NCBI GenBank assembly: GCA_048881705.1
Contig: JBHLSH010000001.1
Location: forward strand, 1 to 64,000
Direction: 5' to 3'
DNA: 64,000 nucleotides
Origin: Candidatus Heimdallarchaeota archaeon
GTDB taxonomy: Archaea > Asgardarchaeota > Heimdallarchaeia > Hodarchaeales > Hodarchaeaceae
Of the stretch, positions 9,506-15,500 are shown piece by piece (position 1 is the first letter of the stretch; each line of letters opens with the position of its first letter). A model generated the notes under the pieces. It was not told the origin of the DNA, ran no database searches, and saw only the letters and a program-made list of their open reading frames with translations. The position numbers were made by a program, and so were the translations under genes.

Positions 9506-10708
9506 GTGAAACAAATGCAACAGCGTTTATCATTTCCATTTTCAGCGATTGTTTCATCAGAAAAGCTAAAACTTGCGATCTTGATAAATGCGATAAACCC
9601 CAAAATTGGAGGAGTATTGATCCAAGGTCCAAAAGGTTCAGGAAAAACTACGATAGTAAGGAGTCTAACTGCAATACTGCCAAAAATCAATGTTGTAAAA
9701 GGCTGCCCTTTCAACTGTAATCCGGAAGATCCAACCAAAATGTGCGAGAATTGCACCGAAAAACACCACAACGGCGAAAGTTTCCTTACCGAAGAGAGAG
9801 ATATGAGGGTTGTAGATCTTCCTTTAGGAGCAACTGAGGATAGAGTCATTGGAAGTTTAAATGTCGAAAAAGCTATAAAACACGGAATTGAAGCATTAGA
9901 ACCAGGGATTCTGGCAGAGGCTAATCAAAACATCCTATATGTCGACGAAATAAACTTGTTGCCAGATCATTTGGCTGACGATTTGCTGGATGCTGCCGCA
10001 ACAGGCTGGAATGTAGTAGAACGTGAGGGAATATCAGTACGACATCCTTCATTTTTCATTTTCATTGGTACAATGAATCCGGAAGAAGGGCAATTAAGGC
10101 CCCAACTCCTAGATCGGTTCTCTTTGTCGGTTTCGGTTGAACCAATATTATCTGCAAAGCAAAGAATGGAAGTAGTAAAGAAAAATCTTGACTTCGAGGC
10201 GAATCCTCAACATTTCCTTGGTACTCAAAAAATTGCGCAAGAAGAATTAATTGATCGAATAATGTATGCTAGAAAAATCCTATCCGAGGTAGAAATGCCA
10301 GAGAACCTTTTGGAGGTCGTATGTCGAAGCTGCATAGAATTAGAGGTAGACGGGATGAGACCTGACATTGTGATTAGTAAAGCGGCAGCAACACTCGCGG
10401 CGTTTGAAAAAAGAAGGATAGTTACCCCCGATGATATCGCAATCGCCTCTGAACTCACATTAAGACATAGAACTAGAAAAGGGGGATTTTTAGAACCCGC
10501 TTCCCGAGACGAAATCTCTAAGATATTCATGGCCAAAATCAAGAAACTGAAATACGTGGAAAAGCCAAAACGTGAAACTGAAAACGAAAGTCCGAAGGAA
10601 CAACCGAAAGGGCGGACTGCAATTTGGGCAAAACAGAAACTAACTGAAGAACAAGAAAAAATGGTAAAAAAAAAAAGAGTAGAGGAAGAAGATTCTTTTC
10701 CTTCATGA
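9506..10708 (+). CDS. ChlI/BchI-type AAA+ ATPase (Mg/Co-chelatase ATPase family); N-terminal half of a ChlD-like gene
   Basis: FPFSAIV, Walker [23 protein letters not shown], Walker [27 protein letters not shown], ending in a charged tail. Confidence 0.92.
10666..10676 (+). other. A11 homopolymer, candidate -1 frameshift / slippage site joining the AAA+ and vWA ORFs
   Basis: ATG GTA AAA AAA AAA AGA in frame 0. The -1 frame is open from 10648 and reads AAA AAA AAA AAG AGT AGA GGA straight into 10705..11880. Confidence 0.6.
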
Positions 10709-11880
10709 GACGTCTCGGTCCTGTTTTTGGCTTTGGCAGAAGAATGGGAGAATCTCCAAAAAAAGCTCCAGTAACCGATGGTGTAGTTAAAGGTACAGAA
10801 GATCTGGGTGGGGAGATTTCGGATGCGATTGATTCTGATAAATTACCAGGAATTCCAACAATAAGTAGAGCCGTACGACCTCCTCCAATATCTGAAGGAA
10901 AAAGTCTCATTTCCAGAGTGAGAGAAAGCATTTTATTCCCATTTAAGTTAATTTTCAAAATAAAAACTCCGAGAGGAACCAGTAGCTTTGTGGGAAAAAG
11001 AGTAGAGACCGTTACCACTCTCCATCGAGGTCGGCCTTGGGGATGGAAAATTCCCAAAGACAAACCTTCTGATATCCATTTACCCGCAACAATAAGAACT
11101 GCAGCAAGAAAGCAGAGATTTCGACAATCTTCTTCTGAATTGGCCTTGCAAATTTCTTTGGAGGATGTACGAGAGAAAGTAAGGCGATATAAGGCGCCCA
11201 TGACCTCGATCTTTGTAATTGATCTCAGTGGGTCGATGTTATTCAGTTTAGAAGAAGCAAAAGAGGCATTACTAAGACTCCACAGAGATGCTTATCAATA
11301 TCGAGATAAAGTAGGGATAGTAGCTTTGAAGGAAACATCTGCCGAGGTTGTTCAACATCCCATTACTAATTTGGGAGTCGTTGCAAACAAACTTCTGGGA
11401 TTGGGGATTAGTGGATTTACTCCATTGGCTTCAGGTATGTTGAAGGCATTAGAGGTTTTAAAAGAAGCTAAACGTCGAGATAGGGCAACCATACCAGTAA
11501 TGATTATTATAACTGATGGAAATGCCAATGTTCCACTTCATAGAGGCATAGATGGAAAAAATCGAGATTTCAGTACATTAGGTATAGTATTACGAGAATT
11601 TGAGGACTTGGCGGTTAAGGACACGCTGGAAATATCAAAATTGCTTAAAAAAGAAGGAATTCATACCGTTGTTGTTAATACAAACCAACATCTCTATGGC
11701 CGTGAGACTTACGGCTATACTGTTACGAAATTAATCGCTATGACCACAAATGGAAGTCATCATCAGGTGGATAGACTTGCTGAAGGAAAGGAGCTTGTTG
11801 ATATGATGTTTGCAGGAATCAGTGACGATCAAAAGAGAGTTTCGCATGGCGCTTCGTTGTCTCTACGTAATTTGTTTTGA
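10705..11880 (+). CDS. ChlD-type linker plus von Willebrand factor A domain; C-terminal half of a ChlD-like gene
   Basis: [54 protein letters not shown]; ~100 low-complexity N-terminal residues; ATGA overlap with the upstream ORF. Confidence 0.9.
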
Positions 11881-12070: not shown

Positions 12071-12853
12071 ATGTCCGAAACACCTTCATTCCCAGCTAAA
12101 AGCGAAAATTACCAGCATCTTTTCCAGTCAATGAGAACAGACCGTTGGTGGGTCGATCCATTACTAAAGGCACTGATTCTGATCATATTCGGCGCGTACA
12201 CAGGGTGGTCAATGTGGATTGGTGTAGATTTCAAATATAATCACTATATCAGCCCTATTTACTCCCCAGAGATCGAAATTGCTGGTTGGCCATTTTCTCC
12301 TGCATTTATTCTTATCTGGGCGCCCTTAGGATTCAGGTTTACCTGTTATTATGCAAGAAGAGTCTATTACCGGATTTTTTTCTTTGACCCTCCGAGTTGT
12401 GCAGTTAATGAGGTACAAGCCATTCGGTATCGATATAAGGGGGAAAATCAAAAATTCCCTTTACCATTTGTTTTAAACAATCTTCACCGTTACTTTCTTT
12501 ACATGGCAATTATTCTAGCTGCCATTCATTGGGTAGATACCATTATAGCATTAAGTTTTGAAGGAGGAATAGGAATAGGTTTAGGATCTGTACTCATTTT
12601 CACAGATGCTTTATTCCTTTCTCTTTATGTTGCATCATGCCATTCATTTCGCCATTTGGTCGGTGGAGGCCTGAACTGCTATTCCTGCTCTAAAGTTCGG
12701 TACGAAGGATGGAGAATAGTAAGTCGGCTAAACAAGTACCACTATGTATTTTTTTGGATGAGTTTGGTTTGGGTAGTAATTGTCGATCTCTACATAAGAT
12801 TGCTAGTACTGGGGATTCTTTCCGATCCATTTATTGTGTTGATCCCTCTTTAA
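12071..12853 (+). CDS. Succinate dehydrogenase membrane anchor, actinobacterial Sdh1 (type F)-like
   Basis: GFRFTCYYARRVYYR, LHRYFLY, SCHSFRHLVGG, LNKYHYVFFW resemble the mycobacterial Sdh1 anchor; first gene of the sdh operon. Confidence 0.75.
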   Translation: MSETPSFPAKSENYQHLFQSMRTDRWWVDPLLKALILIIFGAYTGWSMWIGVDFKYNHYISPIYSPEIEIAGWPFSPAFILIWAPLGFRFTCYYARRVYYRIFFFDPPSCAVNEVQAIRYRYKGENQKFPLPFVLNNLHRYFLYMAIILAAIHWVDTIIALSFEGGIGIGLGSVLIFTDALFLSLYVASCHSFRHLVGGGLNCYSCSKVRYEGWRIVSRLNKYHYVFFWMSLVWVVIVDLYIRLLVLGILSDPFIVLIPL

Positions 12854-12875: not shown

Positions 12876-14708
12876 ATGTCTGAAATCAACATAAAAGACG
12901 AACTTGACGATTTAGAGAGATTTCGCCACGATGTCTTAGTTATCGGGGCAGGAGGAGCTGGATTACGAGCTGCAATCGGAGCTGCGGAAAAAAAACTCAG
13001 TGTTGGAGTGATTTGCAAATCATTATTGGGTAAAGCCCATACGGTAATGGCTGAAGGAGGGATTGCAGCTGCGCTCGGAGATGCAGATCCCAACGATAAC
13101 TGGAAGATCCATTTTAGGGATACAATGAGAGGAGGAAAATTGCATAGTGACTGGCGGATGGCAAGACTACATGGTCAACTAGCTCCTGAAAGAGTGAAAG
13201 AGCTTGAAAAATGGGGGGCCGTCTTTGACCGTACAAGAACTGGAAAAATAAGCCAAAGACATTTTGGAGGACATACTTTCCAACGCTTGGCCCATGTTGG
13301 TGACCGAACAGGACTTGAGATCATCAGAACTCTACAAAACAAGGTCATTCACCAGAAGAATGTCAAAATATACATGGAATGTACTGTGACCCAAATAATT
13401 GTCGAGGAAGGAAAAGTTGTAGGCGTGTTTGGTTATAACCGTCAAGATGGAAGGTTAATGTTGTTTGAGGTGGATACAGCAATAATTGCAACAGGAGGGA
13501 TGGGTAAGTGTTATCGAGTAACCTCTAACTCGTGGGAATATACTGGTGATGGTTTTGGACTTGCCTATGACGCGGGCGCAGAACTAGTTGACATGGAATT
13601 TGTACAGTTTCATCCAACAGGTATGCTTTTTCCTTCCAGCGTCGCGGGAATTCTGGTAACTGAAGGAGTCCGAGGAGAGGGGGGTGTTCTTCTCAATAAT
13701 AAAGGGGAGAGATTTATGTTTAACTATATACCTGAGTTTTTCAAGAACGATTATGCTGATACTGAAGAAGAGGCGGAAAGATGGGGCATGGGGGATAATT
13801 CGGCAAGACGACCTCCTGAATTATTAACCAGGGACGTGGTGGCGAGGGCCATTATATCCGAAGTAAAGGCAGGAAGAGGTTCTCCTCATGGAGGCGTTTT
13901 TCTGGACATTGCGTCAAGGAAATCTAGGGAAGAAATCCTAAAAAAACTCCCCTCTATGCATCATCAATTCTTAACTCTAGCCCAATTAGATATTACAAAG
14001 GAACCTATGGAGGTTGGGCCTACTTGCCATTATTTTATGGGGGGTATTAGAGTAGATCCATTTACGCAGGAGACTTCAATTAAGGGATTGTATGCTGCGG
14101 GCGAAGCTTCAAGCGGTTTACATGGTGCAAATAGACTGGGTGGAAATTCTTTATCTGATTTACTTGTCTTCGGGGCGTTAGCAGGAGAAGCTGCGGCAGA
14201 ATATGCATCTTCATTAACCAAGGAGTCCAACGTTTCGGAAACTAGATTGATGGACGCTATTAATCAGGTTTTAATGTATTTCGATCCAAAACGAACTGAG
14301 GACCCATATAGGCTTCATGATGAGCTCAAAGATATAATGGAAGAGCACATTGGAATTGCCCGCAGTGAGGAGAATATTAAGGTCGGAATCAATAAATTAA
14401 AAGAAATATCCACGAAAATAAATAATGTGGGCGTGTTAGAAGGAGGAAGAAAATACAATCCCAACTGGCATTTATGTATTGATCTTCATCATATGTTCAT
14501 TACTAGCATTGCAATTGCAAGAGGGGCTTTAGAGAGGAAAGAAAGTAGGGGCGCACACACAAGAGTTGATTATCCAGAATCCAATCCAGATTTGACAGAT
14601 TTGCTCATTGTACTAAAAAAAGGTGACGATGGAACCCTTGAAGTTACTCATGAAAAATATCCCAAGATCTCTGACGATTTGGAGGAACTAATCGAGCAAG
14701 AGGTTTGA
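12876..14708 (+). CDS. sdhA: Succinate dehydrogenase / fumarate reductase flavoprotein subunit
   Basis: GAGGAG, covalent-FAD motif GKAHTVMAEGG, QFHPTG, TEGVRGEGG, HYFMGG, HGANRLGGNSL, ESRGAH. Confidence 0.95.
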   Translation: MSEINIKDELDDLERFRHDVLVIGAGGAGLRAAIGAAEKKLSVGVICKSLLGKAHTVMAEGGIAAALGDADPNDNWKIHFRDTMRGGKLHSDWRMARLHGQLAPERVKELEKWGAVFDRTRTGKISQRHFGGHTFQRLAHVGDRTGLEIIRTLQNKVIHQKNVKIYMECTVTQIIVEEGKVVGVFGYNRQDGRLMLFEVDTAIIATGGMGKCYRVTSNSWEYTGDGFGLAYDAGAELVDMEFVQFHPTGMLFPSSVAGILVTEGVRGEGGVLLNNKGERFMFNYIPEFFKNDYADTEEEAERWGMGDNSARRPPELLTRDVVARAIISEVKAGRGSPHGGVFLDIASRKSREEILKKLPSMHHQFLTLAQLDITKEPMEVGPTCHYFMGGIRVDPFTQETSIKGLYAAGEASSGLHGANRLGGNSLSDLLVFGALAGEAAAEYASSLTKESNVSETRLMDAINQVLMYFDPKRTEDPYRLHDELKDIMEEHIGIARSEENIKVGINKLKEISTKINNVGVLEGGRKYNPNWHLCIDLHHMFITSIAIARGALERKESRGAHTRVDYPESNPDLTDLLIVLKKGDDGTLEVTHEKYPKISDDLEELIEQEV

Positions 14709-14711
14709 AGT

Positions 14712-15500
14712 TTGCAGAACAAGTCACAATTGCAGAAAGCTACGTTAATCATTCAAAGGGGGGAGAATAAGGAGGTTATCCGTATGGAGGAATTTGATGT
14801 TGACCTTGAACCGGGTTCCGTGGTTCTTGATGCCGTTCATGCTGTTCAGGCATTACATGCCAAAGATCTGGCAGTTCGTTGGAATTGTAAAGCTGGAAAA
14901 TGTGGTTCCTGTTCGGCTGAGATTAATGGACTACCCAAATTAATGTGTATGACTCGGCTTTCAGATTATGACCTAACTGAACCCATTATTGTAAAACCAA
15001 TGGCTACTTTCCCCTTGATTAAGGACCTTGTCACCGATGTCTCTTGGAATTATGAAGTAAATCGAAAAATCACTCCTCTAGCATTTCCAGATATCAAAAA
15101 ACCCCGTGTAATGCAGGAAGATGTTGATAGAATACAGGAATTTCGAAAATGCATCGAATGTTATCTTTGTCAGGATATATGCCATGTTCTTAGAACTCAT
15201 GAGAAATTCGAGGAATTTGTCGGTCCGCGATTTCTTCTTCGTTTGGCGAATTTGGATATGCATCCTCTAGATACCGAAGATAGAGCCGCAGCCGTAAAAA
15301 ACGAGTTTGGCATCGGATATTGTAATATTACAAAGTGTTGTACTGAAGTTTGTCCCGAAAATATCCAAATCACTGATAATGCGATAATTCCTTTAAAGGA
15401 AAGAGTCGCAGATAGGTACTACGATCCTTTAAAGTGGATTTGGCGAAAAATATTCGGATTTAAGAAGGAAAAAAAATTGTTATCAAGGCAAGAAAACTGA
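14712..15500 (+). CDS. sdhB: Succinate dehydrogenase / fumarate reductase iron-sulfur subunit
   Basis: CKAGKCGSC..C, CIECYLCQDIC, CNITKCCTEVCP. Confidence 0.95.
   Translation: MQNKSQLQKATLIIQRGENKEVIRMEEFDVDLEPGSVVLDAVHAVQALHAKDLAVRWNCKAGKCGSCSAEINGLPKLMCMTRLSDYDLTEPIIVKPMATFPLIKDLVTDVSWNYEVNRKITPLAFPDIKKPRVMQEDVDRIQEFRKCIECYLCQDICHVLRTHEKFEEFVGPRFLLRLANLDMHPLDTEDRAAAVKNEFGIGYCNITKCCTEVCPENIQITDNAIIPLKERVADRYYDPLKWIWRKIFGFKKEKKLLSRQEN

Follow-up and report, generated by a model that had tools for sequence, protein, structure and literature searches.

At one locus of an Asgard archaeon, a gene resembling chlD lies in two pieces, and the question it raises is whether the break is a sequencing error, a lesion, a boundary between two ordinary genes or a site at which the gene is recoded. 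The locus occupies positions 9506–11880 of the first 64,000 nucleotides of contig JBHLSH010000001.1 (forward strand; assembly GCA_048881705.1, Candidatus Heimdallarchaeota archaeon, family Hodarchaeaceae), a stretch that we call the window and to which coordinates refer unless another locus is named. Mg and Co chelatases use I- and D-type subunits, and Antonov is said to have described, in 2020, programmed frameshifting in chlD genes that yields both. The answer we favour from sequence comparison, with a probability of about 0.8, is that 9506–11880 is one functional chlD-type gene, interrupted on purpose at a run of eleven adenines (A11) and specifying a short and a long product.

The A11 tract lies at 10666–10676 on the plus strand, as do all features of this gene. 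Frame 0 crosses the tract as ATG GTA AAA AAA AAA AGA, in the register A_AAA_AAA_AAA_A, and this is the proposed recoding site. The frame-0 open reading frame (ORF1, 9506–10708) terminates ten codons past the tract at a TGA (10706–10708) and encodes the short product, of 400 amino acids from GTG 9506 or 397 from ATG 9515, which gene callers also use as the start. The −1 frame is open for 410 codons, from 10648 to 11877, with its stop at 11878–11880; this stretch holds the linker and the VWA domain, the C-terminal half of the long product. In the overlap zone (10677–10708), frame 0 supplies a 10-codon tail and the TGA, and the −1 frame encodes the peptide SRGRRFFSF (10678–10704) followed by ATG 10705, which overlaps the frame-0 stop as ATGA (10705–10708). 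Gene callers annotate two genes, of 400 and 391 amino acids, the latter referred to here as ORF2. Addition of one A to the tract gives a single AAA+-linker-VWA protein of 791 amino acids; among transcripts that we modelled, those with A9 or A12 encode the long protein and those with A10, A11, A13 or A14 encode products of 391–401 amino acids. The A11 tract, the two frames and the 791-residue product had all been described in an initial annotation made from the letters alone, and each matches the sequence.

ORF1 contains the Pfam domains AAA_lid_2, AAA_5 and Mg_chelatase, with Walker A (GPKGSGKT, 9626–9649), Walker B (LYVDEIN, 9935–9955), sensor-1 (10067–10090), an Arg-finger region (RPQLLDRF, 10097–10120) and a Cys4 insert (9704–9754). 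It matches positions 1–331 of the 337 in the BchI-ChlI model TIGR02030 (388 bits, E = 3e-116), short of the curated cut-off of 467. ORF2 begins with a linker of about 80 residues, close to the ∼100 first supposed, and carries VWA_2 (E = 9e-12) and VWA domains with an intact MIDAS (DxSxS at 11221–11235, T at 11413–11427, D at 11509–11529); it matches positions 348–579 of the BchD-ChlD model TIGR02031. In the 641-position cobaltochelatase model TIGR02442, ORF1 matches 1–368 and ORF2 matches 395–618. Because these are consecutive parts of one model, ORF1 and ORF2 together form a single ChlD-type architecture. Scored as separate halves rather than as a fusion, they reach 456 and 153 bits against a TIGR02442 cut-off of 779, and 226 and 132 bits against a TIGR02031 cut-off of 500. 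All scores are thus below the equivalog cut-offs, and ‘ChlD-like’ is therefore the safe name. A precomputed ‘AAPxQ’ label (PF26791) on the −1 product was not reproduced by a Pfam rescan at E ≤ 1.

Homopolymers of 10 nucleotides or more are error-prone, and in the window's genome (G000; 3.96 Mb, 90.9% complete) the frame is broken at two of the three sense runs of at least ten As that lie well inside long open frames. Both facts would fit a true genome with A12 (or A9) and a plain, intact 791-residue gene. Nevertheless, we consider such an artefact highly improbable. The initial annotation had left room for an assembly error, but the exact 400-residue protein and the identical A11 recur in two independent Logan assemblies of different sequencing runs (SRR24270832 and SRR30758834), each of which differs from the window by one synonymous single-nucleotide polymorphism over 4.5–6.2 kb. 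Within long open frames of G000, the frame is intact at 25/25 sense A9 runs and 2/2 sense T10–11 runs, and therefore the assembly has no general homopolymer problem. The other frame-breaking run, on contig C78, belongs to a gene family with an ancestral −1 split (20/20 genus genomes, at A6–A7 heptamers) and so marks a genuine split, and at least six other assemblies from different projects carry split orthologues of the window gene.

Genome-wide, the three sense runs of at least ten As well inside long open frames all lie in AAA+-VWA linkers. A fourth such run (C65) lies near the beginning of an open frame, 37 codons in. An A11 on contig C83, considered as a fourth split gene, was rejected because the run lies outside genes, in the stretch that separates an EamA gene from a gene for an ABC transporter. 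Triplets of Lys codons composed only of AAA are depleted about six-fold in long ORFs of G000 (11 observed, 67 expected, n = 250; AAA frequency among Lys codons, 0.65), which suggests general selection against slippery A-runs in the host.

The relatives compared are Asgard metagenome-assembled genomes (MAGs) of one genus, labelled Heimdall-, Hod- or Promethearchaeota; the orthologue set comprised six other species genomes of this genus and L176, from a protein collection. The orthologues in the six genomes are at 67–73% identity, and all eight genus-clade orthologues with DNA (window included) have A10 or A11 in the interdomain linker. Three are fused and encode 802–807 amino acids (G021, A10; G012, A11; the closed genome G010, A10). 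Five are split: G008, G015, G011 and L176, all with A10, and the window. Every split needs an added A or a −1 shift, and none needs the opposite shift. L177 and L178, which are more distant and identical to each other, show a −1 split at an A8 run with an ATGA overlap, and in every split orthologue, these two included, the run sits inside the ORF overlap in the −1 register. The closest split relatives, P0004 (81% identical) and P0007, have the two-gene layout, and P0004 is split in both of two Logan assemblies. About 20 Bathyarchaeia orthologues (57–70% identity, 770–850 amino acids) are fused and have no run of eight or more As at this place. A scan of metagenome contigs with the VWA half returned two distant matches only (32–35% identity).

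The run occupies either of two sites in the linker, about 24 codons apart, and the protein is colinear over both. Site 1, before a conserved KPKGRxxIW, is used in G021, G012, G010, G008 and G015, and site 2, before RxRxFxFxSRxxPxF, in the window, G011 and L176. A maximum-likelihood tree places the genes with site 1 and those with site 2 in sister clades (supports 0.95 and 0.92). The window clade (G000, G011, L176) is wholly split and its members are 62–67% identical in protein, and the site-1 clade has undergone at least two changes of state, the sisters G010 (fused) and G015 (split) being different. A run at two linker sites in an otherwise colinear protein speaks for selection that favours slipperiness, rather than for a single accident passed on by descent. 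As a separate observation, the frame-0 stop lies 9–10 codons past the A-run in 5/5 split Asgard orthologues (window, L012, L013, L014, L176) despite the two run sites; this shared distance may be chance.

A gene with a broken frame whose canonical partners (cobN, tetrapyrrole synthesis) were not found could be a decaying pseudogene, in which the loss of a single base pair has, not long ago, disabled a chlD-like gene that had been intact. The downstream half does not evolve like one. Between orthologues, split genes included, the VWA half has a ratio of nonsynonymous to synonymous substitution rates (dN/dS) of 0.06–0.17 at dS ≥ 1, and within the wholly split window clade the ratio is 0.13, again at dS ≥ 1. 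The −1 frame, open for 410 codons in the window, is open for 405–439 codons in the other split orthologues, and the split is common to a clade only 62–67% identical in protein. The selection analysis effectively refutes decay, to which we assign a negligible probability.

A further rival reading is that of two ordinary genes, with the VWA protein translated from ATG 10705 by termination-reinitiation at ATGA, no fusion made, and the poly-A a remnant of a Lys-rich linker. The layout lends itself to this: ATG 10705 overlaps TGA 10706–10708, the ORFs of L177 and L178 overlap similarly at an ATGA, the annotation by gene callers has two genes, and downstream initiation was in evidence for some cassettes of Antonov et al. 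2013 (PMC3711429). However, in G011 and L176 the VWA frame is without ATG, GTG or TTG for 30–41 codons past the run. The peptide SRGRRFFSF, encoded between the run and ATG 10705, aligns with a conserved S-K-x-R-A-R-I-F-Q-F-F of the fused orthologues, and fused orthologues occur within the same genus clade. The run has stayed all-A despite dS ≥ 1 and the genome-wide avoidance of AAA-AAA-AAA, and no Shine-Dalgarno-like motif is present within 14 nucleotides upstream of ATG 10705. We therefore favour translation over the junction above independent initiation, on the combined grounds of selection on the VWA half, a start-poor frame and the aligned pre-ATG peptide; the two-gene arrangement is quite unlikely.

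How might one recoded gene yield two products? Standard decoding would produce the ChlI-like AAA+ ATPase of 397–400 amino acids that ends at TGA 10706–10708. In a fraction of expression events, either RNA polymerase would slip to give A12 (or A9) transcripts, or the ribosome would slip by −1 on A_AAA_AAA_AAA_A; reading would then proceed in the −1 frame to give the 791-residue AAA+-linker-VWA (ChlD-like) protein. The short product may supply the I-type subunit, because no separate chlI gene was found (G000, G008, G010 and G012 were searched). Short and long products would co-assemble into an AAA+ motor with VWA/MIDAS adaptor arms; we infer this co-assembly, and the ratio of the two products, by analogy with ChlI/ChlD and CobS/CobT.

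The frequency with which such a tract can cause slippage is indicated by reporter assays. In E. coli, the same pattern of 11 As, A_AAA_AAA_AAA_A, in a Mg-chelatase fs-gene cassette gave 63% frameshifting, and in the same series the figure was 40% with 9 As and 10% with 7 As (PMC3711429). We looked for a stimulatory RNA structure in the 94 nucleotides downstream of the run, and this segment folds no better than shuffled sequences (z = +0.5). Three features, namely runs of 10 nucleotides or more, the lack of RNA structure downstream and the free interchange of fused with split alleles, make us lean to transcriptional slippage, as in Thermus dnaX, over ribosomal −1 slippage or sliding on the poly-A, at little better than even odds. 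An archaeal RNA polymerase is not known to slip in this way at such runs.

Slippage might also take place in DNA. Under phase variation, changes of run length between A10 and A11 would switch between ChlI-only (OFF) and intact ChlD (ON) alleles, and no programmed RNA slippage would be involved. Long A-runs are hypermutable, the sister species G010 and G015 differ in state, and G012 and G015 have the same flanks with A11 in one and A10 in the other. Set against these points are several signs of stability: A11 is present in all three assemblies of the window species, both Logan assemblies of P0004 are split, and L177 equals L178. Moreover, no split allele needs a +1 shift, and a cell with only the ON allele would have no I-type subunit, there being no separate chlI. 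The whole window clade is split and yet its VWA half is under strong purifying selection, which is hard to square with a mostly OFF allele unless slippage expresses the VWA half. Phase variation in place of recoding is thus unlikely, and replication slippage may add a DNA-level layer to it.

Recoding of this kind has precedents, the closest of which is the fs-chlD cluster (PMC3711429, PMC9227772). There, as here, a linker-VWA ORF that is poor in start codons comes after a ChlI-like AAA+ ORF and is read in the −1 frame, the overlap of the two ORFs contains a poly-A slippery site, fused orthologues exist elsewhere, and no separate chlI is present; the 11-A register of the window gene is the very pattern that gave 63% in the reporter series (PMC3711429). 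A context free of chelatase genes has also been published already, fs-chlD without cobN/chlH and without CHL/B12 pathways being known from Spirochaeta thermophila and Brevefilum fermentans (PMC9227772). The differences are four. The host is of an Asgard (Heimdall/Hod-type) genus, absent among the genera named in PMC3711429, PMC9227772 and a 2021 review of archaeal recoding. AT-rich sites usually have downstream structures according to Kuznetsov et al. 2022 (PMC9227772), unlike the site studied here. Finally, inside a single genus the run has changed its place in the linker, with two positions in use, and sister species alternate in having a fused or a split allele; these last two features go beyond the published cases.

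A second precedent is dnaX, with its tau and gamma products, represented by transcriptional slippage at A9–A10 in Thermus thermophilus and by a two-ORF dnaX with A10 (PMC3711429). Both systems have an A-run at an AAA+ domain boundary and full-length plus truncated products (predicted ones in the window gene), both show in-frame and two-ORF arrangements among relatives, and in both a run of at least 9 nucleotides (here A11) marks the frame junction; the dnaX type has no need of a downstream stimulator, and none was found here. The protein family is a different one, however: the short dnaX product is the clamp-loader subunit minus C-terminal domains, whereas in the window gene the extension is a VWA adaptor.

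The initial annotation had suggested an Asgard instance of chlD recoding, a suggestion now strengthened by relatives that are themselves Asgard MAGs and by the conservation among them of the poly-A, the −1 register and the near frame-0 stop. Judged by its conservation, the A11 tract is very probably a genuine recoding site and an Asgard addition to the published fs-chlD kind. It would extend the fs-chlD recoding family to Asgard archaea, and documented examples of frameshifting in cellular genes of archaea are few. Annotations should treat the two called genes as a single recoded chlD-like gene, in the split orthologues as well. The moved run and the alternating alleles within one genus also form a natural experiment, one that can be of help in telling apart slippage by RNA polymerase, slippage by the ribosome and phase variation.

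Three further AAA+-VWA loci of G000 (C78, C61 and C55, named after their contigs) show the same −1 design. At C78 (∼9751–11642, minus strand), a MoxR-like AAA_5/AAA_3 ATPase of 290 amino acids and a VWA_CoxE-like ORF (368-residue open frame) are split in −1 at an A10. In the orthologues of C78 from 17 genus genomes beyond G001, the junction consists of a C_AAA_AAA_(T/C)-type heptamer (A_AAA_AAN type) and a stop, directly followed in about 15/17 by a GC-rich hairpin (GCGGGA..TCCCGC); the VWA frame is start-poor, its first start codon often lying 100–600 nucleotides downstream. In G000 and G001, the heptamer has been lengthened to A10 and A11, respectively, and the hairpin is gone. Elsewhere in the class, −1 junctions of C78-type loci in other families lie at A7 or T6 runs.

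C61 (18160–19956, minus strand) encodes a 598-residue AAA_5-VWA_2 fusion with an in-frame A10 (..EILKKKMTD..) exactly in the interdomain linker, where one A less leads immediately to a TGA. G000, G001 and G021 carry fused versions, and G017, G016 (closed), G010 (closed) and G015 carry orthologues split in −1; all of them, fused or split, have A10–A11 at the same site. At C55 (21235–23165, plus strand), a MoxR ORF ends with CGT TTT TTA GTG TAA, a TCCCGG..CCGGGA hairpin follows, and the VWA ORF lies in the −1 frame, which is without a start codon for about 60 nucleotides past the stop. Orthologues of C55 keep T_TTT_TTA, the stop and the hairpin genus-wide. No relevant publication on frameshifting of MoxR/VWA genes in archaea emerged from a search of the literature.

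With four paralogous loci in view, homopolymer slippage could tentatively be regarded as a general, evolvable means by which this Asgard lineage adjusts how much free AAA+ ATPase is made relative to the AAA+-VWA fusion. The heptamer and hairpin of C78 would have been replaced by a hairpin-less A10–A11, and slippage by the archaeal RNA polymerase would make fused and split alleles nearly equivalent. This generalization is possible, though we think it rather less probable than its converse. If true, it would be the first case on record of programmed transcriptional slippage in cellular genes of archaea; it would also define, in the closest prokaryotic relatives of eukaryotes, a motor of ChlI/ChlD type that is independent of chelatase.

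What would such a motor act on? It had been suspected from the window that the client is not a chelatase, and the genomes bear this out: CobN/ChlH (PF02514) has no match in G000 and is above cut-off in 0/21 searched genomes of the genus, among them G010, which is closed, and G008, which is 99% complete. HemB (PF00490), HemC (PF01379) and CbiX (PF01903) were not found in G000, nor was HemB in G010, G008, G012 or G015. Because CobN/ChlH and the searched tetrapyrrole genes are missing, the motor most likely serves a non-chelatase client. A comparison of 31 loci for a conserved neighbour that might be a candidate client revealed nothing in common with the Asgard loci; only Bathyarchaeia loci have common neighbours, namely an ORF of about 130 amino acids without a Pfam match and a DUF885 protein.

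Since the search for a chelatase large subunit came up empty, a chaperone of MoxR-VWA type can plausibly serve as a working model. As in the pairs RavA-ViaA, CbbQ-CbbO, NorQ-NorD and CoxD-CoxE, an AAA+ ring would act with a VWA/MIDAS protein that engages the client. The ATPase of the window gene is nonetheless of the ChlI/BchI type (Mg_chelatase, AAA_lid_2), not MoxR-proper with AAA_3. Both parts reside in one recoded gene instead of two, and no client gene is conserved alongside.

Several considerations temper our confidence in a deliberately interrupted gene with two products. Neither half reaches the curated equivalog cut-off in any of the three models, for ChlI, ChlD and cobaltochelatase. 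The reporter data come from E. coli and from cassettes of other species, not from Asgard transcription or translation, and we infer synthesis of the long product from comparative genomics alone. The ATGA overlap makes a free VWA protein by coupled re-initiation possible, either alongside the fusion or replacing it. Calls of fused or split in other MAGs could partly be homopolymer errors of those assemblies.

Beyond the genus, the closest homologues of the window gene are Bathyarchaeia proteins (57–74% identity), and two MAGs labelled Bathyarchaeia (L032 and L033) are sister to the Asgard clade. Together with the Bathyarchaeia homologues, the position of L032 and L033 suggests that the gene passed horizontally between these groups of archaea, or else that bins carry a wrong label. 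In another family of the class, the closed genome G028 has no separate chlI, HemB was not found in it, and its fused chlD (678-residue frame) adjoins cobN (G028:C1:929953–934690). The linker of this chlD contains two in-frame A9 runs (at about amino acids 394 and 422), with stops in both other frames within 1–7 codons.

A second system, paralogous to the first, exists in some genomes of the genus. G002, G004, G006, G011, G013, G018 and G019 have a free-standing ChlI-like gene (∼350 amino acids, 50–54% identical), and in all of these but G006 a protein of 990–1046 amino acids with a ChlI-like N-terminus was found too, at a distance of about 15 kb on one contig wherever the contigs allowed comparison. 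No CobN above cut-off is present in the genomes that carry this system. In the window itself, a 260-residue ORF (12071–12853, plus strand) without a Pfam or NCBIfam match lies directly 3′ of the chlD-like gene and is followed by sdhA/frdA-like and sdhB-like genes (12876–15500).

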